From positions 1,492 to 65,491 of the forward strand of contig JAFGNH010000080.1 in NCBI GenBank assembly GCA_016927115.1: a stretch of 64,000 nt of DNA. Direction: 5' to 3'. Below the pieces are notes generated by a model, which was given only the letters and a program-made list of their open reading frames with translations, was not told the DNA's origin and did no database searches. The translations under genes and the position numbers were made by a program. The stretch comes from Anaerolineales bacterium. GTDB taxonomy: Bacteria > Chloroflexota > Anaerolineae > Anaerolineales > E44-bin32. This document shows positions 14,243 to 44,683 of this stretch, one piece after another. How positions within the stretch are numbered: position 1 is the first letter of the stretch; every line of letters begins with the position of its first letter.

Positions 14243-14298
14243 GCAGGCTCCTTGAACAAATATCAGGTGGGGTGTTAATGCTCCACAATTATCAAAGC

Positions 14299-29473: not shown

Positions 29474-30099
29474 AATTTTCTTACGAATGCCACAATGATA
29501 AGCAGGAATCCAGAAGGAGAGATTAGCGCAAACGTGGCAGTCCTTATCAAAGTGACCATTTTGCAGCAGCAGGGAAAACGAAAGATCTTACTGGAAGATT
29601 CCCCTCAGAAAAAATCTAAAACTGCCAGGGAAACGTGCTTCTACCGGGACTGATTGACACTCATGTGTACAAGGCTCAGGCGTTGATCCGGGAGATGTGT
29701 ATGGTAAGCTATCTGGCAAAACTGCGTGTGCAAGAGCCAACTATGGTGCCTGCAGAAGCAGTTTTGGAGATGGCGACGATCAATGGGTCGAAAGCGATGG
29801 GGTTGGAAGGTCAGATCGGCTCTAACGAGGTTGGTAAGAAGGCCGACTTTATCATTATCGATATGGATAAACCGCATCTTACACCGGCTCCGGATCCTGT
29901 CTCGACAATTGTGTATGCCGCCCATGGCAGCGATGTGGATACCGTGGTCATCGATGGAAGGTCGGTGATGAAACATCGTGAAGTACAAACGTTGGATGAG
30001 CAGTCTATTTTATCTGATGCCCGCAGGCGTTTCCCGGAAGTGAAAAAGCGGGGTGGACTTGATATCAGCCCGCGCTGGCCTGTGGTGCAGCTGTCGTAG
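29474..30099 (+). pseudogene. Decayed amidohydrolase (MtaD/SsnA/cytosine-deaminase-like) gene: frameshifted N-terminus plus a large internal deletion
   Basis: One frame (29474..) reads NFLTNATMISRNPEGEISANVAVLIK, the N-terminal beta-sandwich of metal-dependent amidohydrolases. It is preceded by a TAG and lacks a start codon. A second frame (29635..30099) reads VLLPGLIDTHVY (a degenerate HxH motif), then only about 25 residues later reaches the C-terminal AVLEMATINGSKAMGL...GKKADFIIID...VDTVVIDGRSVM. The total is about 200 codons. Confidence 0.55.
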
Positions 30100-30121
30100 A
30101 ATCTCCAGAAAAAGTAATCAA

Positions 30122-30156
30122 CGCTCTGTTTTAGCTTTACCAGCCAATACAGAGCG
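30122..30156. terminator. Hairpin between convergent genes (possible bidirectional terminator)
   Basis: cgctctgt (30122..30129) pairs with acagagcg (30149..30156). On the minus strand it is followed by a T-rich stretch. It lies downstream of the last gene of the nine-gene operon. Confidence 0.35.
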
Positions 30157-30213
30157 CTGATGTTTCCCCGGGATTCAGCTGTAGTTGCTATGTACCAGAG
30201 ATCAAGGGACAGC

Positions 30214-30402
30214 TTAGACAATCCCTACACAGCTAAGGAAGAACCAGATCATAAAGGGGGCACCGGTGGAGAGAGCCGTCAGGAGGAACGCTGCCAGCGG
30301 CTGATTGTGTTTTCTGTAGATCAGCCTGGATAGAACGCCCAGGCAGATCAGCAGAATCAGCAGTTCCAGGATTATTAATAAAGGCGGTATTTGCATCATC
30401 AT
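30214..30402 (-). CDS. Small membrane protein (about 62 aa, 2 TM helices)
   Basis: I shortened the 123-aa ORF to the ATG at 30402 (MMMQIPPLLIILELLILLICLGVL...), which lies 2 nt after the upstream stop. The rest of the long ORF overlaps the upstream gene. Confidence 0.45.
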   Translation of the reverse strand: MMMQIPPLLIILELLILLICLGVLSRLIYRKHNQPLAAFLLTALSTGAPFMIWFFLSCVGIV

Positions 30403-30404
30403 GA

Positions 30405-30875
30405 CTATCCTCCCAGCAGAAGAAAGAGCAGTGTCCACACAGCAGCTGAAGCGAGTATGGTGCCTGCGAAACGCCGCCGGCTGTCCAGCTTGCAGCGATG
30501 CCGCAGCACTGCTGCAAACAACACCCCACCCCCCAGGTTGACCAGGAGCAGTCCCCAGAACCCTATGAAGAGTTCCATAAACCACGCTGCAGGAAGGATC
30601 ATAAAGCTGAAGATCAACGTAACCCAGAAAGGGCTTTTCCAGCCGGGGGTATCAGTCTCCGGTGGTTCTGATATTTCTTCCATATCAGCGAAACTCACGC
30701 TGGATGGTGTCGGGAAGGCGGCAGGATCAAGCTGCGTGGGTGCCTGCGTATTGAAGGATGAATCTGCAGGCAGTTCTTCTGTTGAAGACAGTTTTTTTCC
30801 ACAAAACCCGCAGAAAACGGCGTCGGAAGGAATTGCACTCCTACAGAAAGGGCAGAAATGCTGAGCTTGCTTCAT
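30405..30875 (-). CDS. Zinc-ribbon membrane protein
   Basis: 156 aa. It has an N-terminal CPFC-x11-CGFCG zinc ribbon, an acidic linker, then 3-4 TM helices. Confidence 0.7.
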   Translation of the reverse strand: MKQAQHFCPFCRSAIPSDAVFCGFCGKKLSSTEELPADSSFNTQAPTQLDPAAFPTPSSVSFADMEEISEPPETDTPGWKSPFWVTLIFSFMILPAAWFMELFIGFWGLLLVNLGGGVLFAAVLRHRCKLDSRRRFAGTILASAAVWTLLFLLLGG

Positions 30876-30927
30876 GATCGTTTCTCCATTACAGAACTCA
30901 TTTCCTGTTCACAGCGGGCTGCAGTTC

Positions 30928-32547
30928 TTATTCTGCCTGCTGCTGAATGTCTGAACTGATGAACCGGCGGGCCAGTGTATGGGCAGAAAAGTACATTGCC
31001 AGGGTTGTAACAAGCGGTGTGAGCCAGATCCATATTTCGAACCATACGTCTCCCAGGCTGAAACCGAAATTGAATCTGCTGAATTCGATAAGGTAATTTC
31101 CAACGGGAGTGGCCAGAGCGAAAGCGGCCCCCCAGAAAAGACCCAGCCAACCAGCCAGTTTCCAATCAGGTTTACGGGGGTTCAACAGGACAACAGTGCC
31201 TGCAGCTGACAGTCCCATGCATAAGAATGACACCAGAGACCAGGACATGTTGGGAGGCAGGTGCCAGCTCCATTCCACGCCGAGCCAGACACGAAGCATG
31301 GACAGGACTACCCACAGCAGCACAGTGCCGCCCATCAGCGGAAGGCTGATCCGGGTGAACTGGCGGATGGCAATCAGTGTGAAGATGCCACCGATGAGGC
31401 CCATAGCAGCGAAAGGCCATACATAATGCATATCAGTTAAGGCAAAGAGTGAGGTGATAACAAGCTCTGCCAGAGCCCAGCCGAGGAAAACCAGGCCAAG
31501 GCTGCTCCATAGTCGCCTGGTGTCGGGCTTTTTCTGCTCTTTTTCAGCAGCCAGTGAGTCGTTCAAAAGCCAGACCAGAAAGGCCCCCAGGAGTATTCCC
31601 ATAAGACCGTACGCTACAAGCGAACCAACATGGATAGCGCGTGCTCTGATACGAAACAGGGGAAACCAGCCGGAGAGCAGGATATACGCAAGGATGAACA
31701 TTCCTGTTATCCCGGTTGCCAACCAGCTGAGTCCCAATCCGAGTGCTTTGCCCCACTGCCGGGACCTGCCGAAGAGGAACAAGCCAAGTACAAGCCCTGC
31801 AACGCCTGGAATCGCGCCTTCGAACAGCATGGATCGCAGCTCCCAGTTAAAATACATTAATGAGTAGCCAATGTTGATCATTGCATACCAGAGAAATGTA
31901 AGGATCAACGTGCCTGCTGCTGCCTGCCACCAGTGTGTCAACCAGCCGTAAAGCCTGAGCAGGATGCAAATTACCCCGCTTGAAAAAAAGCCTAGTACAG
32001 TAAAGAACAGGACAAGGTCGAGGGCAACAATTTGCTTATGGGCCAGGTAGCCTGCAGCACTGCCCAGCATGGTTCCAAGGCCGGTGATCAGTACAATCCA
32101 TCCCGGCATAACCCCCGGTTTTACCGGGGTGCTTTTACGTTCTTTCTTGCGCCGCAGCTCACGCAGTTCCTTCTCCGGAGCTGTCTGCTTCTTCTCCGAT
32201 TTTGATTTTTCCAGTGCATGCCCGCATTCGATGCAGAAGCGTGCATCCACCATATTCATTTTTCCGCACTGCGGGCAGACGGTTCCACCCTGCAGTGATG
32301 GTGGAGGTGCTTCCTCCATCACCTGGGTTGGTGTATCTGCACGATCGATCCGTGTGACTGCATCCATATCAATATCGGGAGGAGAGGCTCCGGCCGGTGG
32401 GGTTTCTGATTGGGCCGGCTGCTGATCTAGTGTTTCTGTATCTGCGTCTATTCCGGGTATTTCCGATGAGGGCGAAAGCCGGGCTCCGCAGTATCCGCAG
32501 AACAGCTTGTCATCCGGGATTTCCTTGTTGCAGTTTGGGCATATCAT
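30928..32547 (-). CDS. Double zinc-ribbon polytopic membrane protein
   Basis: 539 aa. It has CPNC-x11-CGYCG and CPQC-x11-CIECG ribbons, a basic linker (RELRRKKERK), then about 12 hydrophobic helices. Confidence 0.75.
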   Translation of the reverse strand: MICPNCNKEIPDDKLFCGYCGARLSPSSEIPGIDADTETLDQQPAQSETPPAGASPPDIDMDAVTRIDRADTPTQVMEEAPPPSLQGGTVCPQCGKMNMVDARFCIECGHALEKSKSEKKQTAPEKELRELRRKKERKSTPVKPGVMPGWIVLITGLGTMLGSAAGYLAHKQIVALDLVLFFTVLGFFSSGVICILLRLYGWLTHWWQAAAGTLILTFLWYAMINIGYSLMYFNWELRSMLFEGAIPGVAGLVLGLFLFGRSRQWGKALGLGLSWLATGITGMFILAYILLSGWFPLFRIRARAIHVGSLVAYGLMGILLGAFLVWLLNDSLAAEKEQKKPDTRRLWSSLGLVFLGWALAELVITSLFALTDMHYVWPFAAMGLIGGIFTLIAIRQFTRISLPLMGGTVLLWVVLSMLRVWLGVEWSWHLPPNMSWSLVSFLCMGLSAAGTVVLLNPRKPDWKLAGWLGLFWGAAFALATPVGNYLIEFSRFNFGFSLGDVWFEIWIWLTPLVTTLAMYFSAHTLARRFISSDIQQQAE

Positions 32548-32618
32548 GATAGTCTCTTCTCCTGATTAAAATCTGTAAATCACACCGGTTCCTGCTGCCG
32601 GATTCCATATTCTATTTA

Positions 32619-34034
32619 TCAGAATTCTATACCAATTGTGCCGTCAGTTTTGATAAACATGTCACCGCCTTCAAAATCCGGCCGGCTGCCGTCGTGCCAT
32701 ACCATTGTGCCATCCCCTAAAACTTCATCAGGCGGCGGGATTTCTGGGCGGGTATCGTAGCTGCTGTAGTCGGAATCTCCGCTGCCCTGTCGGTCTTCGG
32801 CGTCGATGATCATGTCTATCGGAATAGCTGAAGCAGGCAGAGCCGGGATCTCGCCAGGTTCACCATCAGAAATATCACCTGCAGGGGGAGTGTAATCGTC
32901 CTGGATCATATCAATCGGGATGATATCAGCAGGAAGGACGTTTACAGGATACTCTTCGTCATCCGCAGTACTTCTCCTGTCACTATCCTTGACAGTATCT
33001 CCACCACTGAGATAAGAATCGGCGACAGAAGCGCCAATGGGGACAATAACCTGCAAGGAGCTTAATACCAGATCACCCAAGCCGGCGAAGGTGCGCATGG
33101 TGGGGAAAGTCAGTTTCTCTCCTGTTAGTTCCTCTGCCGTCTCTGCAAGGATCTCATCTGTCAGGGCTGTGTTTGGATCGAGGTTTTTAAGCCGGATCTG
33201 ATTCTCAGAAAGCTCTGGTGCAGCGCGGTCAAGGTTATCAGATCCCATATCTGATGCGGATCCGGATGAGGTTTCAGGAGTGCCGGGATTTTCCTGGCCA
33301 GTTTCGATTTCCGATGAATCCGGAGCAGGTATTGCAGCAGTTTCAAGAGGCTGCTGTGCTGCCCCGCCGCTGTTTTGTACCACAAATAGACCGGATTCGC
33401 TCTTAAGTACAAGGGGCGGGATCGTGGCTTCAAGGACAACAGAAAGGGGTTCTGCACCTGACTCAAGGGTGGGGATATCCAGGGTCTGTCCCGGGAAAAT
33501 CGTACCAGGGTTGTCACCGATAATACTTCGGTTGGCTTCGTGGATCAGCGGCCATAGTTCGGCGCGGCCGTAATAGCGCAGTGCCAGGCTGGACAGCATC
33601 TCACCCTCGGCGACCGTATGTTCCGTCAGGATAGTTCGTTCCAGCTTGGGCGTTTCAGCCGATTCCGGGACAGTTTCATCCTGGCGGCTGAGGTAAATCT
33701 GTTCTACAGGACTGTTTTCACGAATAAGCTTTGATGCCTCGCTTTTTTCGAAAACGGGGATCTCCTTGAGCGGGTCCTGTAAGCCTTTAACAAACGCTTG
33801 CGGCTCTGTTTCGACTGAATCAAGGTATTCCTGGAAGGCGCCCTTGAAGGCTTCAACAAGGTTCTCTAAAAGTGATGTGAATAATGTCTGGATTGCTTCA
33901 GCGTTGGAGTAATCGAGGATTCTCTCCAGGAAAGAACCGGGTTCATGGTTCAAATCATCCAGCTCGCTGCTTTCCAGCGAACCGCTATCAAATGTCTCCA
34001 TCGGGTCAACAAGTGAAAAAATATCGTCGTTCAT
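32619..34034 (-). CDS. Leaderless LysM-domain protein (short paralog)
   Basis: The LysM domain is HTVAEGEMLSSLALRYYGRAELWPLIHEANRSIIGDNPGTIFPGQTLDIP. The N-terminal segment EPGSFLERILDYSNAEAIQTLFTSLLENLVEAFKGAFQEYL is homologous to the N-terminus of the 1096-aa protein. The protein ends in GTIGIEF and has no signal peptide. I preferred the ATG at 34034 (AGGA upstream). The ORF-track GTG at 34058 is an alternative. Confidence 0.8.
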   Translation of the reverse strand: MNDDIFSLVDPMETFDSGSLESSELDDLNHEPGSFLERILDYSNAEAIQTLFTSLLENLVEAFKGAFQEYLDSVETEPQAFVKGLQDPLKEIPVFEKSEASKLIRENSPVEQIYLSRQDETVPESAETPKLERTILTEHTVAEGEMLSSLALRYYGRAELWPLIHEANRSIIGDNPGTIFPGQTLDIPTLESGAEPLSVVLEATIPPLVLKSESGLFVVQNSGGAAQQPLETAAIPAPDSSEIETGQENPGTPETSSGSASDMGSDNLDRAAPELSENQIRLKNLDPNTALTDEILAETAEELTGEKLTFPTMRTFAGLGDLVLSSLQVIVPIGASVADSYLSGGDTVKDSDRRSTADDEEYPVNVLPADIIPIDMIQDDYTPPAGDISDGEPGEIPALPASAIPIDMIIDAEDRQGSGDSDYSSYDTRPEIPPPDEVLGDGTMVWHDGSRPDFEGGDMFIKTDGTIGIEF

Positions 34035-34089
34035 CTTTCTTTCCTTTGTTCGCTCCACCTTGCATGTGAAACAAAGAGTGCGAAACCGA

Positions 34090-34824
34090 CTATATTGCAG
34101 GTGCCTCCTCTTTTTTCTGGCTGAGATGGCGGATCAGGAGCTGGTTGGCAGCCTGGAACTGTTTCAGTTCCTCAGATGGGAATGGGAACCGTGCGTTCGC
34201 CATACCCAGGACCAGCAGGCAATATGCCAGGTTACCCAGATGAGCTGATGAAATGTAGGCCTGGGTGATCCCCAGCGAACGCCAAAGATGAGCTAACGCG
34301 AATCGCCAGGTTGTTTGCAGCGGATCCTGCTCTTTTTCCGGCTTTGCGGCGTTTTCTTCCAGCATCTGATGCAGGAGCGAGTAGTCCGGATGGCTGATGA
34401 GCACGAAGTGCCCGTAGCGGCAGGGAGCTGCACAGTATTGGCAGCCCCGGGATTTCCTGAGGCGGTTCTGTTCGCTTGATCGACCGGGTGAACCGGCCAG
34501 GAGCGCCATCAAGGTGCTGAATACCCAGGCAGCACGTGGAGACTGGTGGGCAAGCCGGGCTGAGTGCGTGAGAGTTCCTGCAAACCTCTCATTGGGAGTC
34601 TGCTTTGCCAGGTAGAATTCGATGATTTTTTGGCAGGCCTCGGGAACTGTTTCAGCAAAGTATGCTGGAGTTTTCAATCCGGCGCGCTGAGCCAGTGCCT
34701 GGCGCAGCGGTCCTCCGGCCTGTTTGAAGTTATAGATATGCTCCGGCGGGCAGAAAGACAGAAGGTGCAGATAACTCGCTGTTTGCTGCAATCCCTGGGG
34801 AAGATGTTTTTCTGTTTGAGTCAT
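34090..34824 (-). CDS. Cys-rich protein of unknown family (paralog of 38237..38953)
   Basis: 244 aa with AGGAGG upstream. Blocks conserved with its paralog are SYLHLLSFCPPE, RGCQYCAAPCRYGHFVLIS and HLGNLAYCLLVLGMANARFPFP. Confidence 0.7.
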   Translation of the reverse strand: MTQTEKHLPQGLQQTASYLHLLSFCPPEHIYNFKQAGGPLRQALAQRAGLKTPAYFAETVPEACQKIIEFYLAKQTPNERFAGTLTHSARLAHQSPRAAWVFSTLMALLAGSPGRSSEQNRLRKSRGCQYCAAPCRYGHFVLISHPDYSLLHQMLEENAAKPEKEQDPLQTTWRFALAHLWRSLGITQAYISSAHLGNLAYCLLVLGMANARFPFPSEELKQFQAANQLLIRHLSQKKEEAPAI

Positions 34825-34882
34825 ATTTTTCCTCCTCTTAACGCTGTGGTGGAGTCCGAATGAACAGGTCCAACCGGTTTTG

Positions 34883-37800
34883 TTAGAACTCGATAGTCAC
34901 ACCACCGGGTTCCCCGCCGGTTTGAAGGAATTCACGGAGTTCTCCCGAAGGAATCCAGTCATCTTTGATCATGCCGCGCTGGTACAGCTCCTGCATTCGA
35001 TCCAGGCGATTGTCTCCGGCGCCGGCAGTGGTCTGCAGTTTGAAATCGAAATTGATATTAACCAGGTCTTGAAGGCCGAGTTGGAGAAGATCGTCACGAT
35101 TGAGGATATCGTCGCGATTGAGGATGTCATCACGGTTGAGGATATCCCAGCGAACCGTGGTGGGCAGATCAGCATAGTTGAGAATACCTCCCTGACTCGG
35201 GATGCAGATTTCTTTCAGGACTGAGGGCCAGGTTTCTGCGGATGGAAATGCTGCCTCCCGCAGGGAAGAATACAGGCTGGCGGGTATGGCCGATGCCGGG
35301 ATTGCTCCAGCGGCAACTTCCTGGCCGATAAAAATCTTCGTCCATGTGGTAAGCTGGTCGCCGGAAATGTTGTTCGCTATCTCCCTGTAGTCCGAAGTGC
35401 TGAGCCAGCTGAAATCCTTCTCCATCAGGGGAATATATTCGGTGGTGTTAACCCACTGGATCATTTCATTCCGGACACTGGCGGGGATGGCGGAGGCAGG
35501 GATGGCCTGGTTTCTGAGATCGTCAAAGAGCTCCCATTTCATACTGGCGGGAATGGCACTGGCTGGGATGGCACTGATTTTCTCGGCCAGAATGCTGGCG
35601 GGGATAGCGCGGGTGAACTCGTTCATGATGCTGGCGGGTATCGCCCGCGATCCGCCTTCACCGGCATTAAAAATTTCCACCATCAGGCTGGCTGGAATGG
35701 CGGAAGCCGGGATGGCGCTGGCAGGAATAGCGCGGGCAAGGGTTTCAAGCATACTGGCAGGGATTGCATCGGCGCTGAGCTCACCGGTATTCACCATGGA
35801 AATTAGGTCTGACGGACCCAGTGAATTCATCACACTGGCAATCTCTGACCGCAGGCTGGCCGGGATGGCGGAGGCCGGAATGGCTGATTGGATGTCCAGG
35901 AGGATGCTGGCGGGGATGGCGGAAGCTGGAATGGCAGAGGCTGGAATAGCACCAGCATCGATGTCTTTGAAAATCTCGACATATATACTGGCGGGAATTG
36001 CTGATGCCGGGATGGCCGACGCCGGGATGGCGCTGGCGGGTATGGCGCTGGCCGGTATTGCCTCGGCAATCGCCTGTAAAAGGCTGGCTGGAATAGCGGA
36101 AGCCGGGATGGCACTTGCCGGGATGGCCTGGGCCAGGTCCTGCAGGGCACTGGCGGGGATGGCTGAAGCCGGGATCGCTCCGTTTTCAATCCGGTTAAGG
36201 ACGGCTCCGAGGAAATCATCGCGGTTGAGAATATCATCTCGATTCAGGATATCATCGCGGTTGAGAATTTCCATCAGAACGTCAGGATCGAAGGCACCGG
36301 GGTTTACAGGATGGGCATACAGGTCCCCGGCTGCCAGCCGCTCCATCACACCATCGAAGAAGCCTGTGGGGATCTGGTCCAGGGGTACAGAGTTCAGGAT
36401 GTCTACCAGTTTTTCACTGGCGATTCCCTGCAGCAGGAAGGGTTCTTCGGCCGCGATCCGGCACAGCCGCTCATCGGGAAACAGCGAAAGGTATTCTGAG
36501 CTGCTCCAGTTCTTTGCCAGCCAACTGCTGGCGAGCAGCGGGTCCACAAGCGAATCAGTCATATCTGAAACGCTGATCCGTCCATCGTGCAGCGCCTGGG
36601 CGATCTGTTCGTACTGCTTAACCGGCAGCCATTCCGCGTCGTAATCACCCGAACTGATACCGGAGAGCAGGTCGTTCACATCGGCGGGAAGCTGCAGCTG
36701 GCCGCTATCATACAGGTCACGGGCGTAGGAGGGCAAAATCGATGGTTTCAGGCCGTGATTGAGCATCAGATCGTGTATATCCTCGCTGCTCAGCTGCTCA
36801 TCAAAGTACTCCCAGAACCCATCCTGCAGTAAGGCGCAGTTGTCGGGCAATAAAATATCACCTTCGCCGGTGCTGGCACAGGCGGTGATAAACGCACTGA
36901 GGGAATCCCTGTTCATCTGATCGAACGGCATGGCACCGGTCCACACGGCACGGGCGATCCCATCGAGCCTTTCAGGCGGCAGCTCGGAGGGCTGGATGTC
37001 TCCGGAAACAACTCGTTTCATAAAGTTACTTCCCATATCAGGAGCTTCATAGTCGGAAGCGCTGCGCGCCTCGTTGACCACGCCGGTGAGCCCGAAGATG
37101 GTCGTCTTTACACCTTCAGGCGCTTCGGCGGGCATATCGGCTGTATCTTTGGCGGCACCGCCTTCAGCCACTGCTGCAGAAGCACCCGCTTCCGCTGCTT
37201 CTGCACCCGCATCCGCATCCGCTCTATCGCCGGCGGCTTCAGCCGCTTTGCTGACTTCTTCACCCGGTTCGGCAGGCATTATTACCTGTGGTGCTTCAGC
37301 GACTCCACCAGTAACCGAAGCCCGCCCGGGATCCTGGGCAGGGATGGCAGGCGAATCTTCGTTGAAGTCAGGCATTGCATCGGCATCTGCTGGAGCGGTA
37401 TCCGAGACGGCTGCAGTACCAACTGCGGGAGCGGCAGCCTCCACGGGAGCGGCTGTATCTGCTGCTGGTGCAGTCTGCTCAGGGGGCTGGTAGGAAGCTG
37501 TCTCTACCGGCGTGTAGGTGCTCGGTGAGATCACTGTGCCCGGTCCGGGAGATGAGTCCAGTGGAGGGATCACAAATTCCTGCCCGGGATAAATCATGTT
37601 GGGGTTTTCACCAATGACAGCCTGATTGGCTTTATAAATCGCAGACCACATGGCTGCGTTTCCATAATAGTGCAGTGCAAGATGGGAGAGCGTTTCACCC
37701 TCAGACACAGTGTGTTCTGCTGCGGAGCTGGTTTCGACAGGTGTGCGCTGTTCACCCGAATCCGATACAGTACTGGAAGCAGAAGGTGTCTCTGTGAGAT

Positions 37801-38173
37801 GTGTGGATGATGCTCCGGTTGTTTCCACCATCTCCTTTTTAAACTCATCCAGCGCCTTGTCGACAAGTTCCTGGACCTCACTCTCACTGTACAGGTTTTC
37901 CTCATTCTGAAGCGGGGCTTCCAGTTCCTGCTGGAATGCCTCCGTATCGGTATGGACGATCGAGATATACTCCTGGTATGCGTCTTTGACTGCACCAGAG
38001 AGATTTTTTGCCAGGCTGACAAAGAAAGATTGAATGGCTTCAGCACTGACGTAGGAAAGGATGTTCTCAAGAACAGACCCCGGTTCCCTGACTGCCCGGT
38101 CGAGAGTTTCCAGGCCGGTTCCCATTTCTTCTGTAATTTTTGTGTCCTCAATGTGTTTATTCAAGTTGTCCAT
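34883..38173 (-). CDS. Leaderless LysM-domain giant protein with AIPAS and ILNRDD repeat arrays
   Basis: 1096 aa. It has an N-terminal domain shared with the 479-aa paralog, a LysM domain (37565..37714), an Ala/Pro/Glu-rich linker, a unique central domain, and then 27 perfect AIPAS units in 12 clusters bracketed by two ILNRDD triplets. It ends in GGVTIEF. No signal peptide or TM helix is present. Confidence 0.85.
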   Translation of the reverse strand: MDNLNKHIEDTKITEEMGTGLETLDRAVREPGSVLENILSYVSAEAIQSFFVSLAKNLSGAVKDAYQEYISIVHTDTEAFQQELEAPLQNEENLYSESEVQELVDKALDEFKKEMVETTGASSTHLTETPSASSTVSDSGEQRTPVETSSAAEHTVSEGETLSHLALHYYGNAAMWSAIYKANQAVIGENPNMIYPGQEFVIPPLDSSPGPGTVISPSTYTPVETASYQPPEQTAPAADTAAPVEAAAPAVGTAAVSDTAPADADAMPDFNEDSPAIPAQDPGRASVTGGVAEAPQVIMPAEPGEEVSKAAEAAGDRADADAGAEAAEAGASAAVAEGGAAKDTADMPAEAPEGVKTTIFGLTGVVNEARSASDYEAPDMGSNFMKRVVSGDIQPSELPPERLDGIARAVWTGAMPFDQMNRDSLSAFITACASTGEGDILLPDNCALLQDGFWEYFDEQLSSEDIHDLMLNHGLKPSILPSYARDLYDSGQLQLPADVNDLLSGISSGDYDAEWLPVKQYEQIAQALHDGRISVSDMTDSLVDPLLASSWLAKNWSSSEYLSLFPDERLCRIAAEEPFLLQGIASEKLVDILNSVPLDQIPTGFFDGVMERLAAGDLYAHPVNPGAFDPDVLMEILNRDDILNRDDILNRDDFLGAVLNRIENGAIPASAIPASALQDLAQAIPASAIPASAIPASLLQAIAEAIPASAIPASAIPASAIPASAIPASIYVEIFKDIDAGAIPASAIPASAIPASILLDIQSAIPASAIPASLRSEIASVMNSLGPSDLISMVNTGELSADAIPASMLETLARAIPASAIPASAIPASLMVEIFNAGEGGSRAIPASIMNEFTRAIPASILAEKISAIPASAIPASMKWELFDDLRNQAIPASAIPASVRNEMIQWVNTTEYIPLMEKDFSWLSTSDYREIANNISGDQLTTWTKIFIGQEVAAGAIPASAIPASLYSSLREAAFPSAETWPSVLKEICIPSQGGILNYADLPTTVRWDILNRDDILNRDDILNRDDLLQLGLQDLVNINFDFKLQTTAGAGDNRLDRMQELYQRGMIKDDWIPSGELREFLQTGGEPGGVTIEF
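35090..35143 (-). repeat. 3 x 18-bp in-frame repeat encoding ILNRDD-ILNRDD-ILNRDD (C-terminal copy)
   Basis: The units are atcgtcacgattgaggat, atcgtcgcgattgaggat and gtcatcacggttgaggat. They are identical as peptide and differ at synonymous sites. Confidence 0.9.
35276..36178 (-). repeat. Coding repeat region: 27 AIPAS pentapeptide units (15 bp each) in 12 clusters separated by short amphipathic spacers
   Basis: Read directly from the sequence. For example, gctggcgggtatggc reverse-complements to GCC ATA CCC GCC AGC, cgatgccgggattgc to GCA ATC CCG GCA TCG, and tgaagccgggatcgc to GCG ATC CCG GCT TCA. The cluster sizes are 2,3,5,3,2,1,3,1,1,2,2,2. Confidence 0.9.
36215..36268 (-). repeat. 3 x 18-bp in-frame repeat encoding ILNRDD-ILNRDD-ILNRDD (N-terminal copy)
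   Basis: The units are atcatcgcggttgagaat, atcatctcgattcaggat and atcatcgcggttgagaat. It lies immediately upstream (in protein terms) of the AIPAS region. Confidence 0.9.
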
Positions 38174-38236
38174 GAGTACCTCGAGCGTTCTTATTGGCAG
38201 ATGCAGTGTCAGTGGTGTGTGTTGGTTCCTGTCGGG

Positions 38237-38953
38237 TCAAACGTGTGCGGCGTTGGCCGGCCAGCCGGCAATCAGGGCCTGGTTCCACTCCTGAAAAGAA
38301 GCCAGTTCGGATTCGGGAAACGGGAGGCGGGATTTGGCCATGGCCAGAACCAGCAGGCAGTAGCTCAGGTTTCCCAGGTGGTACGGGCTGATGTACCCCT
38401 GCCGGGTTCCCAGAGTTCGCCACAGATGACTGGTAGTAAAAGACCAGGTGGCTTTGAGCGTGCCGCCGGGGTCCCTGCTGTTTTCGTGCTGCTCAAGCAG
38501 TTTCTGCAGCAGGGTGTATTCAGGCCGTGAAACGAGCACGAAAAATCCATAACGGCAGGGTGCCTGGCAAAACTGACAGCCGCGTGACGGGCGCAGCCGT
38601 TTGTTTTTTTCCGTCCGGGAGGGCAGGGAGCAGATGCGGTCCATCTGCTGTTGAAACAGATAGGCGGCTTCAGGGCTTTCCTGTGCAGTTTGTGCAGCCC
38701 GGCTTAAATCATTTTTTAGCTTTTGATCCGGGATGGGCAGGCGCTGGTGGAAAGCAGTGATACGGCGGCATGATTCAGGGATTGTGCGTGCGAAAAATTC
38801 CGCCTCCGGCAGGTCCGCCTGCAGAGCCAATCCACTGCGGAGAGGAAGGCCTGCCTGTGCAAGAGCATGAATCTGGTCCGGCGGGCAGAAGGAAAGAATG
38901 TACAGGTAGCTGATAGAGGCTTGTATTTCCTGCACGGTGAGAGAATCAGCCAT
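38237..38953 (-). CDS. Cys-rich protein of unknown family (paralog of 34090..34824)
   Basis: 238 aa with GGAG upstream. The conserved blocks are SYLYILSFCPPD, RGCQFCQAPCRYGFFVLVS and HLGNLSYCLLVLAMAKSRLPFP. Confidence 0.7.
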   Translation of the reverse strand: MADSLTVQEIQASISYLYILSFCPPDQIHALAQAGLPLRSGLALQADLPEAEFFARTIPESCRRITAFHQRLPIPDQKLKNDLSRAAQTAQESPEAAYLFQQQMDRICSLPSRTEKNKRLRPSRGCQFCQAPCRYGFFVLVSRPEYTLLQKLLEQHENSRDPGGTLKATWSFTTSHLWRTLGTRQGYISPYHLGNLSYCLLVLAMAKSRLPFPESELASFQEWNQALIAGWPANAAHV

Positions 38954-39004
38954 GGGGTTTTCTCCTTCAAACGATACGGTGGAGGCTGGTTATCGGGTGG
39001 TTCA

Positions 39005-41803
39005 CTACCGTTCCAGCCGCGGCATCGGTGTGTAGAATATTTTGGTCCAGGAGGGCATATCATCCTGGAAGCCTGCAATGATCGCCTGGCCGACTTTCAG
39101 GCGGGCGATGACTTCAGCCTGTTCTTCCTTGAGAGCCAGTGTGCCGGCCATGGTCTGGCGGTCATCAGCGGCGACAAGGCGATGAATGATCTTGAGATTG
39201 GTATTCTTGAGCGCATCGGGCACCAGTTTGGCAGGCACCTGGTCGATAATGGCAAGGCCCTGGCCGTAGGCACGTATTTCCGCGAGGATGTCGGCAAACA
39301 TCTCGCCCATCTTGGCTTGTGGGTTGGCACCGTAGGCAGTCTGAGGCGCCGCACGCAGGATGCGGTGCGCCTCTTCAAAGATGGCCAGGTGGCGCAGATC
39401 ATGCGATTCAGGGGACCCTTCCAGTTCATGCTGTGCCTGACGGTATTCGTACATGAAGTTCAGCAGCAGTGCCATGGTGAGGCACTTGTCGGCATCATCG
39501 CCCATCTGCTGCAGGTTGATTACGACCGGCCGGTCGAACAGGTCTGCCCAGGGGGTGGACTGCTGGCAGTTGAAGGTTTTTCCCTTCCAGCCGCGCAGCA
39601 GGCTGCCAATTCGTGTACGCAGGGCGGCGGTAATATTATCGGTGATACGCTGTTCGTACCCCTTGGATTTCACCAGATCAGAAATTCGATCATAGAGGTT
39701 TTCAAGAGTCGGGCAGCACACACCTGCCGGAGGCAGTTTATCCTGTAGCCATCCCTGGCTGTCATAGAGATCGACCAGGGCTTCTTCGAGAATGACGGGC
39801 AGGATCTCCTGCATCGGAAAGCTGGCGTTGAAGATAGACCGCAATCGGTCCAGGTGCGGCATCACCTGGGCTGTTGCATCCGGCAAACGGACAATGTCGA
39901 ACGGGTTAAGCTGCAGACTGTTGAGTTTCTCGCTGCCCCATTCCGTCCGTCCGGGCATATACACTGCTATTTTGCGATCAAAGGTGCCGGCCTGGTTATA
40001 GGCCAGTGCAAGCTGGACGTATTCCTCTTTCGCAGGTTCAATCACCATGAAGTTGACGTTTCGCTGCATCAGCTCTGAGATCAGCCGGCGGCAAGTATTG
40101 GATTTACCGCTGCCGGTGATTCCGGTGACGAAAACATGCCGCGTGAGTGAATTCAGATCCACTTCATAGGTGAGGTTCCCAACTTCTTCTCCGCCGTCCA
40201 GTATGGCGCCAAGCCGGATCGGATTTTCTTCCTTGCATATGGTGGGCGGGTTCAGGCTGAAACTGGCTGTGGGTTGAACAGGCAGCCCGGGCAGTTCACG
40301 CAGGGGAAGATTCGCGTACAGGGAGAGTTCTTCGGTGTTCAACAGAGTGGTCAGGTTTTCAAAGGCTTCCCCCAGCGGGTGGTGTACACGGTTTGCACTA
40401 TCCGGGGCGAACAGGCGCAGCGGAGGCTGTCGGAAAGCATCCAATGATACCTGGACTTGCCCATCCCAAACAGGATGCAGGTCATGGACCCGGATGGGTT
40501 CAAAGGCGCTTTTTTCACCGCTGACCAGGGCTTTCAGTTGTGATTGGGCCTGGGCGGTGGTTTCAGCCTGATCGCTCATGAGATACACCCCGACATTCCA
40601 GCAGCCCTTGCCGCGGGCAATTTCGAAGCGGGTGACGGTTTCCTGGAGAAGCTGTTCACAGGCTTCGGCGTGTTTGTTGAGGTATTCACGGCCGAAGGAA
40701 AGCGACTCGCTGGAGGATGTGCTTTCGGTGTCGGTGGTGCCGGCGGTCTCGCCGCGGGTCTGTCCGATTGAGCTTGAGGTGCCGCTGGAGGTGGAAGTAG
40801 AGGAAGAGGGCAGCAGCTGGCCGAACATACCCAGCATTCCCGATAGGGCGAAGCCACCCGCCAGCGGGATCATCAGCGCGCCGGCACCGGCCAAACCGAG
40901 TGCCTTCAACCCCTTCCCCACACCGCTGGAATCTGACAGAGCGGTTCCCAGGGCACCACGGCTGCGGCTTTCACTTGAACCGGTGGTGGTGCCCTCCGTC
41001 TCCGATGTAGAACTGCTGTAGCTGACAGAACGGGCGGAACTTTGGGAGGAACTGTCGCTGGTGCTGCGCTGAATGGTGGCTTTCGTAAAAGCGTGGATCT
41101 GGCTGGAAAGGGTACGGCAGTCGTGGATGATCTGGTTTACGCTGCTCTCAGGAACAGGATTGGCAAGTACCATGTACAGGTAGGGTTTACCGCGCAAGCC
41201 GCGCATGAACTGATCAAGGCTCTGGGGGTAGTCCGACGGTTTATCGGATTCGATGGGAGAAGGGATACCCGTGAACGAACGGGCAAAGCGGTATTCACTG
41301 AGAGGAATATGGATTTTACGGACGATCTCGTTGTAATCAGAAACGGCTTTAACCCTGGTCCCGGGCCAATTGGAACACAGGAACTGGCCGAGCTGGTCGG
41401 CAAACAGGCGCGGCTGCCCTCCCGGTGCTTGCGTCAGGATACCGATATAGATATCTGAGCGGAATCCATCGCTACTGATAAGGAACAGCAGGGAATAGCG
41501 CGGGTCGTGGCAGGCAGCAAGGGTGGTCTGGATGGCGCGCAGGTTCCTGGAGAAATCCTCGCTGACAGGCTGGCCAACCTGTTCCAGATGGAAAAAGGCC
41601 ACATCAGGAGGGGGAGGTGGTGCTTCCTCAAGCACACGGACATAGTTGGCGTCGAAGATGGGGCCGTCCAGATAGTTCCTGCTGAGAGCGAACAGCATTG
41701 CGCGTGAAATCAAGTCCCCGGTCGTGGTCAGCATTTCAACCGGAAGCTGATCCAATGGTTCCAGGTCTGTTGGGGCGGGTTCAATGGAGTGGTTCTCTGT
41801 CAT
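39005..41803 (-). CDS. HerA/FtsK-superfamily P-loop ATPase (DUF87-like) with a novel N-terminal domain and a Ser/Thr-rich, Gly-rich hydrophobic insert
   Basis: 932 aa. It has Walker A VTGITGSGKSNT, Walker B HLAIFEEAHRIL and the C-terminal NTNLKIIHRL. Residues ~246-369 (40697..41068) are Ser/Thr low complexity. They flank GLKALGLAGAGALMIPLAGGFALSGMLGMFGQLL, a probable membrane segment. Confidence 0.8.
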   Translation of the reverse strand: MTENHSIEPAPTDLEPLDQLPVEMLTTTGDLISRAMLFALSRNYLDGPIFDANYVRVLEEAPPPPPDVAFFHLEQVGQPVSEDFSRNLRAIQTTLAACHDPRYSLLFLISSDGFRSDIYIGILTQAPGGQPRLFADQLGQFLCSNWPGTRVKAVSDYNEIVRKIHIPLSEYRFARSFTGIPSPIESDKPSDYPQSLDQFMRGLRGKPYLYMVLANPVPESSVNQIIHDCRTLSSQIHAFTKATIQRSTSDSSSQSSARSVSYSSSTSETEGTTTGSSESRSRGALGTALSDSSGVGKGLKALGLAGAGALMIPLAGGFALSGMLGMFGQLLPSSSTSTSSGTSSSIGQTRGETAGTTDTESTSSSESLSFGREYLNKHAEACEQLLQETVTRFEIARGKGCWNVGVYLMSDQAETTAQAQSQLKALVSGEKSAFEPIRVHDLHPVWDGQVQVSLDAFRQPPLRLFAPDSANRVHHPLGEAFENLTTLLNTEELSLYANLPLRELPGLPVQPTASFSLNPPTICKEENPIRLGAILDGGEEVGNLTYEVDLNSLTRHVFVTGITGSGKSNTCRRLISELMQRNVNFMVIEPAKEEYVQLALAYNQAGTFDRKIAVYMPGRTEWGSEKLNSLQLNPFDIVRLPDATAQVMPHLDRLRSIFNASFPMQEILPVILEEALVDLYDSQGWLQDKLPPAGVCCPTLENLYDRISDLVKSKGYEQRITDNITAALRTRIGSLLRGWKGKTFNCQQSTPWADLFDRPVVINLQQMGDDADKCLTMALLLNFMYEYRQAQHELEGSPESHDLRHLAIFEEAHRILRAAPQTAYGANPQAKMGEMFADILAEIRAYGQGLAIIDQVPAKLVPDALKNTNLKIIHRLVAADDRQTMAGTLALKEEQAEVIARLKVGQAIIAGFQDDMPSWTKIFYTPMPRLER

Positions 41804-41830
41804 CAGGAAGCCTTTCAGCGATAGGCCGGC

Positions 41831-43402
41831 TCAGTCCTGAGCAAGCCGGTAGCGGATCGATCCGATGCGGATTTCATCTCCCTGGCGGAAGATGGTTGGC
41901 TGCTGTGGTGCAATACAGGCAGCGTTGAGATATGTTCCATTCGTGCTGCCCAAATCCACCAGGTAGAAAACCTCGCCATCTTTCCTGATTTCTGCATGGA
42001 AGCGGGAGGCCAGATCATCTTTGACCCAGACATCATTCCGGCTTTTCCTGCCGAGGGTTGTGATTCCTTTTATAAGCGGGTATTTCTCTCCGTTTTCCGA
42101 GACAAGATACCAGGCCTCCTGTTTGTTTTCGTCGGACGAGGCAAATGAAATGGTGGGCTGAGGTGCCGGGGTTTTTAAGGAAGAGCGGTTTTGTGAAATG
42201 CCGTATTCGAGTGCAACGCCTTTTACGACAATTTCCTCGGGGTTATCGGAGAGAAGGATTCGATCTTCGCCGAACTGATCGCGCAGGTGACGTACGATGG
42301 TAAACAGCTGTGAACCGCCACCCACCAGAACCACCTGATGGATATCCTCTATAGTGATTCCCATCGACTTGAGTGCGTTTGAGATCAGGTATTCAAAATC
42401 CGCAATCAGGTGGCGGGCGATACCCAGAAATGTGTCTTCCTCGAGCTGCACGGTGCTGCGAAATACGGAACCATCCCGCATAACCACGGTTATAGTACGC
42501 CTTGGTGTATGGAAGGTGCCGCTGGAGTTGAGCAGCTGGCGGCTCAGCGATTCTTTTAATTTACGGGCAGCATTACGCAGCGATATCAGTGCTGTGGGGT
42601 CATCTGCCAGAGCGTGTGCAGGAATTTCAAGTTTTTCAATGAGGTATTTTGCCAGTTCTGCATCATATAATCCGCCCCCGTGAGGTTCCCCGTAGTGGTG
42701 GGTGAATTCAATCTCTCCGGTCCGGGGATTGACTTTTCCGGCGACCATATCAGTTGTGCTTCCGCCGACATCAGCGATCAGGGTAAGGCCTTCAGGCCTG
42801 TCAGACTGCAGAAGTCCCTGGTGATACAGGCTGAGAATAGCTCCTTCAGGTTCCGGAATAAAGCGAATGCGTTCATGCATTGGTGGTTCGAAACAGGCAA
42901 GAATAATCTGTTTGAAGTCGTTAAGAATGCTGCCATCGTAGCCGAACTGCCAATAGACGGGATAGGCAAAGGAAAATCGGATCTGGTTGTTGAAAGGTTT
43001 GTTATACCATTTTTCTTCCTGAAGTTGATTCAAGACAGATTGCAGCAGCATACTGGTGTACGTCAGCGCCTGGTTATGCGTATAACGTTTCTGGTGCGGG
43101 AGGGGCGTTTTTTGCAAATGGGCTCCGATACATGGTTTGAAGTATTCGCGGATTCTTTCACGCACGTCCTCCTGGTCCATCTGTTGTGAAACGGTTTCGC
43201 CGTAGCTTTCAAGTGCTGTTCCGTCTGCGTTCATAAGCAGGGCGGCGGGGAGGTGACGGTCATAGAAGCTTGTGAGGGGGGAAGGCTGCGGATCGCTGAG
43301 CATATGAATGGAGTTTTGCTGGTGGAGATACTCCACGCGGTAAAGACGCCAGTTCGTTGCTCCACAGTCAAAGGCGAAAAGCGTTTCCTGTTGTCCGGTC
43401 AT
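41831..43402 (-). CDS. Hsp70/actin-fold ATPase fused to a C-terminal FHA domain
   Basis: 523 aa. The sugar-kinase/Hsp70/actin motifs are FAFDCGATNWR (phosphate-1), IADVGGSTTD (phosphate-2) and VVLVGGGSQ (adenosine). There is no Hsp70 substrate-binding domain. The C-terminal FHA is TLGRKSRNDVWVKDDLASRFHAEI...LVDLGSTNGTYLN...GDEIRIG. Confidence 0.8.
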   Translation of the reverse strand: MTGQQETLFAFDCGATNWRLYRVEYLHQQNSIHMLSDPQPSPLTSFYDRHLPAALLMNADGTALESYGETVSQQMDQEDVRERIREYFKPCIGAHLQKTPLPHQKRYTHNQALTYTSMLLQSVLNQLQEEKWYNKPFNNQIRFSFAYPVYWQFGYDGSILNDFKQIILACFEPPMHERIRFIPEPEGAILSLYHQGLLQSDRPEGLTLIADVGGSTTDMVAGKVNPRTGEIEFTHHYGEPHGGGLYDAELAKYLIEKLEIPAHALADDPTALISLRNAARKLKESLSRQLLNSSGTFHTPRRTITVVMRDGSVFRSTVQLEEDTFLGIARHLIADFEYLISNALKSMGITIEDIHQVVLVGGGSQLFTIVRHLRDQFGEDRILLSDNPEEIVVKGVALEYGISQNRSSLKTPAPQPTISFASSDENKQEAWYLVSENGEKYPLIKGITTLGRKSRNDVWVKDDLASRFHAEIRKDGEVFYLVDLGSTNGTYLNAACIAPQQPTIFRQGDEIRIGSIRYRLAQD

Positions 43403-43864
43403 GCAGGTTCCCTATGAAGAAAGTTACAATGATGAACGACAATCTGCTGCAAATCTCTCATAACTGTCCGGAAATTTCGGTTGTTGTTCTTGACCAGATT
43501 TTGTGTGGCGTAGCAGGGTACCTGCAATAATAATCAACCTGATGGATGAAGGGGAGACGGTGGGTAGTGAGCCCGGGGTATAGGGTTGTATGCAATTCAG
43601 TAAGGCCACGCGTTTTACCTGGATAAACGACAATCAATCTATTCCGATCTGAATTAGTACGTATGGGCAAAATCATAGTCCTGTTTGGTGTAGATGGCAA
43701 ATTCAGGATACCTGATTTTTACCGAATAGTGGTTTTAGTGAAGGTTTTGTGTAAGGTTGTGAGGAATCCTGGAAAAAAATATATCAGATATTGGTTGAAT
43801 TAAACGAAATGAACAAAATAAATTGTGGGTCTGCTGTGAGGTGGAATCTGCCTTTCATGGGGAG

Positions 43865-43902
43865 AAAAAAGGATTCAGGCACTTGATTTTATGCCTGAAT
43901 CC
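43865..43902 (-). terminator. Rho-independent terminator of the DsbA-like gene
   Basis: A perfect 10-bp stem, ggattcaggc (43871..43880) with gcctgaatcc (43893..43902), and a 12-nt loop. It is followed on the minus strand by TTTTTT (43865..43870). Confidence 0.6.
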
Positions 43903-43927
43903 GGGTTATTAGGTGAGGATGTTTAGG

Positions 43928-44683
43928 TTACTCGGCGGACAGTTCGCTGTCAATAATGGCGTAAAACTGTTCCAGCGGTGCAGCCCCTATAAGCGGAATA
44001 CCATTGATGAAGAAGACCGGTGTGCCGCGGGCGCCAAGTGCAGCCACGAATTCGGCATCTGCAATGATTTCGCTATTGTGGGTCTCACCGGCGAGGCATT
44101 CACTGAATTGATTCGCGTCCAGGTTCAGGTCTTCGGCATATTGAGTATATGCTTCTGTTCCCAGTGCCATTCGGCCGGAATACAGCAGATCGTGATATTC
44201 CCAGTACATATCCTGATCGCCGGCACAGTTGGCTGCAACAGCGGCATCAAGAGAGGTTTGACCGAGGATTGGAAAATCCCGGTAGACAAACTGGATCTGC
44301 CCCGGATACGTGTCCAGAAGGGCCTGGAAGGATTCAGTGTGAAACTTGCGGCAGTAACCGCAGTTATAATCGCCGAATTCAATAAGCTGAATGGGCGCAT
44401 CAGACGGGCCAAACACGGGATCATCGTCGGCATCGACAGGGAACCGCTGTATTTCACCTGGTTCGGTTGTGGGGATTACAGCAGCGGCGTTCTCTGCAGG
44501 AGCCTGCGCGGTCTGCTCTCCGGTAGAATCCATACCCCAGATTGCGTAACCGATGAGTACACCAATCAACAGAGCAACAGGCAGCATCAGGTACAGCTTC
44601 CGGTTTGGATCAGGTGCAGGAGCTTCGTTGGGTGCCTCGTGATCCGTTTCAAGCAAATTAAGGTCTTCTTTGTATTCTTCCAT
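43928..44683 (-). CDS. DsbA-family thiol:disulfide oxidoreductase, membrane-anchored
   Basis: It has an N-terminal TM helix (LMLPVALLIGVLIGYAIW), the thioredoxin-fold active site FGDYNCGYCRKFH, and a C-terminal GTPVFFING. Confidence 0.8.
   Translation of the reverse strand: MEEYKEDLNLLETDHEAPNEAPAPDPNRKLYLMLPVALLIGVLIGYAIWGMDSTGEQTAQAPAENAAAVIPTTEPGEIQRFPVDADDDPVFGPSDAPIQLIEFGDYNCGYCRKFHTESFQALLDTYPGQIQFVYRDFPILGQTSLDAAVAANCAGDQDMYWEYHDLLYSGRMALGTEAYTQYAEDLNLDANQFSECLAGETHNSEIIADAEFVAALGARGTPVFFINGIPLIGAAPLEQFYAIIDSELSAE

Follow-up and report, generated by a model that had tools for sequence, protein, structure and literature searches.

We describe here a gene system found in a 64,000-nt window of DNA from an Anaerolineales bacterium (GCA_016927115.1, contig JAFGNH010000080.1; unless a locus is named, coordinates are window positions). 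It is an operon of nine co-directional open reading frames (ORFs) on the minus strand, 43402-30214, all of which lie where an initial annotation, made from the letters alone, had placed them. Its conserved core consists of an Hsp70-type nucleotide-binding domain (NBD) joined to an FHA domain, followed by a HerA-type ATPase, a Cys-rich protein, and one to five proteins that begin with a common tag. This tag, which was not among the features of the initial annotation, is the key feature of the system. In our tentative reading, which we hold to be slightly likelier wrong than right, the system is a phospho-gated, ATPase-driven machine for the export or surface assembly of the tagged proteins. No known secretion, conjugation or defence system was matched in Pfam, NCBIfam or PADLOC searches, in agreement with the earlier view that the system is uncharacterised, and full-text literature searches found no description of it; nor is one given in Kaur 2020, Kaur 2021 or Zhang 2012. 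It is apparently undescribed and outside every described kind, in that it brings together a fold family, an addressing tag and an ATPase architecture that are all new.

Relatives of the Cys-rich protein are few: 45 were found in 5.8 billion clustered proteins, and their contigs showed the same neighbours. A scan of one genome per GTDB species with an ATPase alignment yielded 62 loci: about 50 from metagenome-assembled genomes (MAGs) of Anaerolineales/Anaerolineae, seven from cyanobacteria and one partial archaeal match. ORFs were called in all loci and labelled by the window proteins, and the rates given here refer to the 57 Anaerolineae-type loci. The Hsp70(-FHA) gene lies just upstream of the ATPase gene in 49 of 50 loci, 47 of these with FHA, and the Cys-rich gene lies directly downstream of it in 51 of 54. 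At least one tagged protein is encoded in 40 of 45 loci, and Ser/Thr kinase genes are present in 34 of 57. In the window all four core parts are present, in order, and at least 40 other loci share this order. The operon arrangement is not due to chance, given that dozens of loci repeat the succession of its first four gene types. The gene-neighbourhood check thus found the synteny in related genomes on which the initial annotation had relied. That annotation treated the nine genes as one set; the core proves to be the Hsp70-FHA, ATPase, Cys-rich and tagged proteins alone. Its recurring pair of a Cys-rich and a LysM gene is actually a Cys-rich gene with tagged-protein genes, usually in a ratio of 1 to 2-3; the C-terminal modules of the latter are many, LysM being just one.

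Two general readings of the gene set were considered. The viral contigs of IMG/VR contained no relatives, and a phage or mobile-element origin was rejected. A universal housekeeping machine of the class was set aside as well: flanking genes vary, some MAGs have two copies, and a variant in Pelolinea differs. Two copies of the whole core occur in several MAGs (L007/L016, L010/L012, L011/L018 and L044/L060); their ATPases are 72-97% identical and are accompanied by different client sets, and they could be real duplications or strain mixtures in the bins. The variant in Pelolinea MAGs (L041:8367-18225, L047:8377-19624) is without the Cys-rich protein and without tagged clients. There the ATPase gene is followed by genes for one or two proteins with L-type lectin domains, a small FHA protein, a PP2C phosphatase and a kinase of about 830 residues.

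Both LysM proteins of the window and all variable proteins encoded downstream of the Cys-rich gene, which we call clients, share an acidic N-terminal tag of 35-40 residues. A hidden Markov model (HMM) of the tag built from 13 N-termini found 89 proteins, and the rebuilt model found 94 in the loci and the window. The tag is always N-terminal, with a median start at residue 20, and each locus encodes between one and five tagged proteins. Their genes are always on the operon strand and downstream of the ATPase gene, the exception being two in the divergent locus L001, which lie on its ATPase-side arm. In the consensus, ExxExxEEQALDDATHEPGARVEQTGDYEQAEA[VI][EQ], E23 and E32 are invariant, P18 is conserved in 93% and [YF]28 in 95%; the window tag is a divergent version, ..LDDLNHEPGSFLERILDYSNAEAIQ... 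A 40-column tag profile returned nothing significant from the database of 5.8 billion proteins, for whose size such a profile is too short.

Tagged protein 1 of the window (1096 residues, gene 4, 34883-38173; tag HMM 5e-23) carries its tag at residues 14-53 (TEEMGTGLETLDRAVREPGSVLENILSYVSAEAIQSFFVS; 38015-38134) and a LysM domain at residues 154-203. These are followed by a repeat region in which 15-nt and 18-nt tandem repeats (35090-36268) encode dozens of AIPAS pentapeptides and DILNRD hexapeptides, and the protein ends in ...TIEF. AIPAS repeats were also seen in the LysM client of locus L013. In tagged protein 2 (479 residues, gene 6, 32619-34058; tag HMM 1.4e-26) the tag occupies residues 23-62 (FDSGSLESSELDDLNHEPGSFLERILDYSNAEAIQTLFTS; 33873-33992) and LysM residues 147-196, before an acidic C-terminal region ending in ...GIEF. 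The two proteins are 35-41% identical over their N-terminal 200-280 residues or so. The LysM domains score about 21 bits in Pfam, at the cut-off, and match NCBIfam PRK11198 at 3e-12 and 1e-9.

Across the loci the clients measure 140-1766 residues. They belong to a small number of classes that recur and whose C-termini are conserved, and therefore are not hypervariable cassettes. LysM is found in clients of the window, L013, L018, L022 and L069. Other C-terminal modules are coiled coils, with some coiled-coil or SMC-like matches, and there are single weak matches to NlpE, MG4, GH43 and AgI/II-type domains. An NHLP-clan/Frankia_peptide-like helical domain (PF14407, NF038399) forms the C-terminal part of 11 of 86 clients (e.g., L012:18698-19933, L016:13646-15070, L020:13170-14546, L060:13633-15051 and L023:13605-15032). 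After it comes a conserved tail, some 45 residues long, ...VHAVWRDLNPGGLAYVLAYKIPQKHL, with a GG motif as in the leader cleavage sites of ribosomally synthesized and post-translationally modified peptides (RiPPs). Amid the tagged arrays, three consecutive radical SAM genes (369, 446 and 358 residues) are present at L007:8109-11631, with equivalents in L012 and L061, which hints that some clients are modified after translation.

These features raise a RiPP- or proteusin-like maturation system as an alternative to export. The tag would be a leader read by the Cys-rich protein, acting as a recognition element or as an Fe-S or Zn enzyme, the ATPase would unfold or present clients, radical SAM enzymes would modify them in some loci, and export might follow. 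RiPP precursors follow the same logic, a conserved leader at the N-terminus and a rest that varies, and the Cys-rich protein has a CxxCxxxC cluster and two more invariant Cys. The likeness to NHLP/proteusin pathways is nevertheless confined to one client class and three loci, and neither the NHLP-like domain nor a radical SAM gene was found in the window. Moreover, the domain is C-terminal, not in leader position, in proteins of 300-660 residues, and it scores 26-44 bits against a cut-off of 48; the clients as a whole extend far beyond the size of RiPP precursors. No conserved peptidase, PCAT transporter or cyclodehydratase accompanies them, and the Cys-rich protein resembles neither RRE/PqqD nor radical SAM, nor any other enzyme fold that is known. 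We regard maturation as the main role of the system as distinctly unlikely.

The composition of the clients is unusual. Their median isoelectric point is 4.05, with 98% below 5; they are rich in E, D, P and G, and their Cys content is 0.1%, versus 1.0% in neighbouring proteins. No signal peptide, transmembrane (TM) segment or N-terminal hydrophobic segment was found in them, and as each ORF was extended to its earliest possible start, a signal peptide hidden upstream is excluded. Short linear motifs are common, with ATPINLP in 41 of 87 clients and DYYTP, DLPxGSG and KDPLTGK in 16 each. Interspersed among the client genes are 15 lipoprotein genes (lipobox and PPEE linkers) in 10 loci. The clients are largely disordered, and their composition is typical of disordered substrates that are exported unfolded.

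Such a composition, with its short linear motifs, is also typical of disordered scaffolds. It could be that a disordered acidic matrix in the cytoplasm or close to the membrane is built, taken apart or positioned by the ATPase together with the Hsp70-fold protein. In filamentous cells such a matrix might be a condensate, or a structure at the septum or pole. The coiled-coil and SMC-like matches, the Hsp70/actin-fold partner, the filamentous habit of the lineages and the lack of a conserved channel protein would all suit remodelling of this kind. We consider it quite unlikely, because LysM modules, lectin modules and the interspersed lipoproteins point to the exterior of the envelope, a near-absence of Cys is more typical of exported proteins, and the Hsp70-type protein is without a substrate-binding domain.

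The Cys-rich protein 1 of the window (238 residues, gene 3, 38237-38953) was characterized by alignment and an AlphaFold2 (AF2) model, and Cys-rich protein 2 (244 residues, gene 5, 34090-34824) is its paralogue, 48% identical; identity across loci is about 46%. C23, C126, C129, C133 and C199 are invariant in the family, in the motif CPP...GCxxCxxxCRYG...C. The family is small, with 59 representatives in 1.84 billion proteins (HMMER), all in the same architecture. The model is all-alpha and confidently predicted (predicted local distance difference test, pLDDT, 89; predicted template modelling score, pTM, 0.88). Foldseek found no fold match to it in PDB or BFVD, a profile search found no PDB match, and Pfam, NCBIfam and PADLOC contained no matching family. 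As modelled, this is a new fold family, and we propose that the protein is a metal-binding adaptor.

Which components might read the tag was addressed by Mantel-type comparisons over 28 loci. Tag divergence correlated with ATPase divergence once the Cys-rich protein was controlled for (partial r 0.45, p about 5e-4) and with divergence of the Cys-rich protein when controlled for the ATPase (partial r 0.22, p about 0.006), although co-variation of this type is inflated by shared phylogeny and is weak evidence. There was no tracking of Hsp70-FHA in the same comparisons. The pattern fits, weakly, recognition of the tag by the ATPase and the Cys-rich protein.

The ATPase (932 residues, gene 2, 39005-41803; Pfam DUF87, 9.6e-13) is a HerA-clade P-loop protein with a family-specific N-terminal half (residues 1-530) and one DUF87/HerA domain (residues ~531-925). 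Its PDB relatives are HerA proteins alone (4d2i, 9x1l, 8yho, 8xau), for the part beyond residue 525 alone; the N-terminal 530 residues have no PDB relative by sequence and no detectable HAS-barrel. Walker A (GITGSGKSNT) and Walker B (IxEEAH) are invariant in the alignment. Identity is 63-72% across Anaerolineae, where the protein falls into at least 193 clusters, and 45-47% to the cyanobacterial homologues. An AF2 model from 19 sequences of 63-72% identity was poor (pLDDT 47, pTM 0.33) and was not used for fold searches or for the insert. Two further matches were noted. A Halobacteria MAG encodes a protein 48% identical to ATPase residues 477-867 (L065:6154-7305), and ATPase residues 334-893 match NCBIfam NF033849 'serine-rich protein' (ser_rich_anae_1) with 98 bits against a cut-off of 650, which points to another family, related to this one and likewise bearing a Ser-rich insert, in other bacteria.

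Composition and hydropathy define an insert at residues 240-375 of the ATPase (40679-41086), between two predicted long helices. It has three parts: a Ser/Thr-rich linker (40% S+T), a hydrophobic, Gly-rich segment of 35 residues (GLKALGLAGAGALMIPLAGGFALSGMLGMFGQLLP; Kyte-Doolittle hydropathy 1.77), and a second Ser/Thr-rich linker. The Gly, Lys and QLLPS positions are invariant, and the same three-part insert, with a central Pro-Pro, is present in the cyanobacterial homologues. These features suggest a short membrane-inserting hairpin, and we propose that the insert is also a target of phosphorylation.

An ATPase of this superfamily could instead be a DNA pump, for conjugation or uptake in the manner of TraB or the Ced system. 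Models of CedD (2.4e-24), HerA, TraB and VirB4-like proteins in NCBIfam match its core, as do Pfam FtsK_SpoIIIE and TrwB over the P-loop, but all of these matches are far below curated cut-offs and touch the ATPase core alone. The loci hold no relaxase, integrase, nuclease or other DNA-handling gene, and the tag and client arrays would be left unexplained. DNA translocation is in our estimate highly improbable.

The protein encoded by the first gene of the operon (523 residues, 41831-43402) combines an Hsp70/actin-fold NBD (Pfam HSP70, 1.1e-18) with a C-terminal FHA domain at residues 448-514 (4.4e-19). It has no Hsp70 substrate-binding domain, matches DnaK NBDs and the GarA/OdhI FHA domains in PDB, and is about 50-55% identical across loci. 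Phosphorylation enzymes accompany it. Besides the Ser/Thr kinases counted above, PP2C phosphatases, FHA-OmpR-type regulators and zinc-ribbon kinases occur in some variants or subsets of loci. In the window, a Ser/Thr kinase with C-terminal double zinc ribbons (14299-15522, minus strand; Pkinase 2.2e-37, Zn_Ribbon_1 6.5e-18) is encoded about 15 kb from the operon. It is likely the displaced cognate kinase, since it is orthologous to the kinase inside the L013 operon, to which it is 63% identical over 375 residues. An 801-residue ORF with no Pfam match (12068-14473, minus strand) overlaps the 3' end of the kinase gene by about 175 nt.

Zinc ribbons also occur in membrane proteins of the operon. 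Gene 7 (30928-32547) encodes a 539-residue protein with two N-terminal zinc ribbons (Pfam Zn_Ribbon_1/DZR) and 10-12 TM segments. Ten hydrophobic peaks are seen where the initial annotation estimated about 12, and in the 156-residue zinc-ribbon protein of gene 8 (30405-30875; Pfam, hydropathy) there are three C-terminal TM segments, the lower of the earlier figures of 3-4. The N-terminus of the latter is 37% identical to that of the 539-residue protein, and a relative of it is encoded in L013. The 539-residue protein has a homologue in the near relative L069 alone, and its zinc-ribbon N-terminus is common to proteins in L013 and L018. In a relative whose ATPase is 89% identical, two extra genes precede that of the 12-TM protein, one for a zinc-ribbon/Ig-like membrane protein and one for a third LysM protein. 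Zinc-ribbon membrane proteins are seen in the LysM subtype alone (window, L013, L018, L069) and are subtype-specific accessories, not core. The larger one is possibly a channel or anchor. Profile searches in Pfam and NCBIfam confirmed the earlier domain calls for the zinc ribbons, as for Hsp70 and FHA, the HerA-type ATPase and LysM, whereas the placing of the membrane components in one conserved set with the other genes did not hold up, and no multi-pass membrane protein is conserved in the core.

Full-length homologues of the ATPase in cyanobacteria have other neighbours. They were found in Microcoleus, Okeania, Microseira, Dolichospermum, Microcystis, Planktothrix and an Oscillatoriales MAG (L054, L055, L057, L058, L059, L062 and L064; e.g., L058:4838-21030). 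The operon there encodes an Hsp70-NBD with TPR, several single-TM proteins of about 108 residues, an AAA ATPase, a metallopeptidase, an MbnB/TglH-like enzyme, a lipase, a PP2C-dynamin protein and DUF1822. The ~108-residue proteins were tried as WXG100-like and rejected as such, being single-TM proteins. The cyanobacterial loci contain no Cys-rich protein, tag or tagged clients.

Apart from the small single-TM proteins, these neighbours recur in the systems of PMC7159879 and PMC8195603. They bring up an intracellular, NTP-dependent conflict system, for immunity or programmed cell death in multicellular bacteria, in which the tag would be an adaptor that brings effector or scaffold proteins to an ATPase/Hsp70 assembly hub whose firing threshold is set by kinase, PP2C and FHA. 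Confinement to filamentous or colonial lineages and the several copies in some MAGs would agree with this. HerA ATPases are, in addition, frequent in defence, and the PADLOC HerA and mad8 models match the ATPase. Other observations speak against it. No toxin, nuclease, peptidase, TIR or pore domain is recognisable in the clients, whose classes are few, recurrent and conserved; there are no immunity-like genes, no PADLOC partner protein and no occurrence on viral contigs; and conservation of the ATPase is unusually high. With the tag, Cys-rich protein and clients absent from cyanobacteria, the neighbourhood there may be another use of the ATPase. We think a conflict system unlikely.

Export or surface assembly remains the best reading. 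The clients are made without Sec or Tat signals and are acidic, Cys-free and largely disordered. From there, the tag would be recognised by the helical, metal-binding Cys-rich protein, by the N-terminal half of the ATPase, or by both. The ATPase, tethered to the membrane via its hydrophobic hairpin, would use ATP to thread clients or hand them over. Linked Ser/Thr kinases may phosphorylate the Ser/Thr-rich linkers, with PP2C countering them in some variants, and the FHA domain of the Hsp70-fold partner would read phosphothreonine and so gate or assemble the motor. Once outside, clients could be fixed in wall or matrix by their C-terminal modules, in the window by LysM followed by AIPAS repeats, and the zinc-ribbon membrane proteins of the window may supply a conduit. 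An extracytoplasmic destination is favoured because LysM and lectin modules occur without Sec signals, lipoprotein genes are interspersed, and the composition is Cys-free, acidic and disordered. The common tag on leaderless clients, the lipoproteins, the ATPase hairpin and the linked Ser/Thr kinases, PP2C and FHA together favour export. Motors of the FtsK/HerA/VirB4 superfamily drive type IV and type VII secretion systems (T4SS and T7SS), with VirB4/VirD4 and EssC/EccC as precedents.

Several observations weigh against export. There is no direct sign of it, and no multi-pass membrane protein that could serve as a channel is conserved across the loci. The Gly/Pro insert of the ATPase, at about 35 residues, is too short to cross the membrane twice and looks like a monotopic anchor, not a pore, and the HerA-clade ATPases of solved structure serve as scaffolds in defence or at DNA ends and do not translocate proteins. 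LysM is also found in cytoplasmic proteins such as Kbp/YgaU, the family of the best NCBIfam LysM match, and matches of clients to extracytoplasmic-type domains are mostly single and below curated cut-offs. Among 861 locus proteins, none reuses a client C-terminal domain behind a Sec signal peptide. To these are added the conflict-system-like neighbourhoods of the cyanobacterial homologues and the inflation of the tag co-variation by shared phylogeny.

The proposal can be put more fully as a secretion or surface-assembly system of a new type, belonging to filamentous Chloroflexota with a single membrane. A hairpin-anchored, HerA-type hexameric motor, phospho-switched through its FHA-bearing Hsp70-fold partner, would export unfolded, acidic, Cys-free proteins by means of a 35-residue N-terminal signal, aided by a new metal-binding adaptor, and a sister motor with different accessory sets would operate in cyanobacteria. 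As a whole this version is possible but rather doubtful. Few filamentous bacteria are as abundant in sediments, digesters and activated sludge as the Anaerolineae; to our knowledge, little is known of how they build their surfaces, and secretion in them beyond Sec and Tat is essentially unknown. If export is correct, it would be a new type of secretion system whose substrates can be predicted from genomes by a recognisable signal. The analysis also gives a first functional context to a large family of HerA-type ATPases that is also present in bloom-forming cyanobacteria (Microcystis, Dolichospermum, Planktothrix), and a testable case of Ser/Thr phosphorylation controlling a HerA-class motor. 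Even if the clients stay inside the cell, no client system addressed by a tag and based on HerA plus an Hsp70-fold protein has been described before.

The nine operon ORFs are separated, in order, by 27, 51, 63, 58, 31, 71, 52 and 2 nt. The gene for the 479-residue client probably starts at an internal ATG (M9, nt 34034), because MNDDIFS... then matches the N-termini of homologues; the gap before that gene would then be 55 nt. The last ORF (62 residues, 30214-30402; ORF call and hydropathy) is hydrophobic with two TM-like segments, is unverified as a gene, and has no Pfam, NCBIfam or PADLOC family match and no homologue among the conserved loci. The non-coding leader proposed upstream is present as an intergenic region of 525 bp. 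It holds the terminator of the preceding gene (43902-43871, minus strand; 12-bp stem and T-run) and one promoter-like site, TTGCCA-17-TATGAT (43672-43700, minus strand), a match to consensus alone, one being found where 1.5 are expected in shuffled sequence. That preceding gene, directly upstream on the same strand, encodes a DsbA-like thioredoxin-fold protein (43928-44683, minus strand) and has its own strong terminator; such a neighbour was not seen in the other loci. An Rfam scan of 29800-44100 gave no match and no leader riboswitch. The downstream hairpin exists as an inverted repeat 3' of the last ORF (30117-30161, no strand assigned; 20-nt arms, 85% complementary, 5-nt loop), but it has no T-run and was not called by the terminator scan. 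Abutting the 3' end of the operon is a 154-residue ORF on the plus strand (29635-30099) that matches the C-terminal quarter alone of an amidohydrolase family (Amidohydro_1, 263-345 of 345). The 600 bp upstream of it hold small ORFs alone, and it is probably a truncated or degraded gene.

Pfam, NCBIfam and PADLOC searches with the nine proteins returned nothing beyond generic domains and no fit to a T4SS, type VI secretion system (T6SS), T7SS or defence system, as the initial annotation had supposed. For T4SS and conjugation, there were sub-threshold matches limited to the P-loop alone (TrwB_AAD_bind, E 0.009; T2SSE, 7e-4; VirB4-like, about 20 bits versus cut-offs above 300) and no other T4SS genes (VirB6/8/9/10-like, relaxase). 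No Tss families were found, the sole T6SS match being that of FHA to TagH (TIGR03354, 38 bits versus a cut-off of 120). By analogy, and from established knowledge, a Ser/Thr kinase, PP2C and FHA reader beside a secretion-type ATPase would resemble PpkA-PppA-Fha1 of T6SS, and an actin/Hsp70-fold protein paired with a hexameric ATPase would resemble GspL-GspE and PilM-PilB, although genes for Tss, Gsp or Pil structural components are absent from the present system.

The C-terminal ATPase domain is closest to HerA. At the level of single-protein HMMs, PADLOC models for HerA-SIR2, HerA-DUF4297 and MADS match the ATPase alone (mad8, 3.8e-18, and the HerA models), with no match for the other eight proteins. 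NCBIfam HerA equivalogs score 46-56 bits versus cut-offs of 800-970, and no NurA, Mre11 or Rad50 is present in the window or loci. A Ser/Thr-rich hydrophobic insert and tag/client arrays are not known in HerA systems. The conflict systems of Kaur et al. (2020, 2021; PMC7159879, PMC8195603) are, like the present one, enriched in filamentous bacteria and use Hsp70, kinase, PP2C, FHA and TPR components, and their effector-associated domains, like the tag, are short conserved N-terminal modules on diverse proteins. The MoxR-vWA pair, STAND and TRAFAC GTPase core are absent from the window operon and the sampled Anaerolineae loci, and the ATPase, Cys-rich protein and tag are not described in those two papers.

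T7SS occur in monoderm-type lineages including Chloroflexi (PMC3482391). No WXG100 or LXG protein was found among the nine window proteins or 86 tagged proteins, and Pfam and NCBIfam gave no matches to EssA/EssB/EsaA or EccB/EccD/EccE/MycP. The present motor has a single HerA-type P-loop domain versus the three FtsK-type domains of EssC/EccC, with an FtsK_SpoIIIE match at residues 538-594 alone (25 bits), and a hydrophobic hairpin insert in place of N-terminal TM helices. Its FHA domain is on a separate Hsp70-fold protein, and the Cys-rich protein is unique to it. Against these differences stand an FtsK/HerA-superfamily motor, a motor-associated FHA domain, substrate paralogues encoded beside the motor, and substrates that lack a leader and are recognised by a conserved, helical module at the N-terminus. 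The tag also has [YF]xx[SA]E in 77 of 81 cases, reminiscent of YxxxD/E, as a resemblance alone. By analogy, the functional resemblance of the system is closest to T7SS, with the P-loop superfamily alone as a component family in common.

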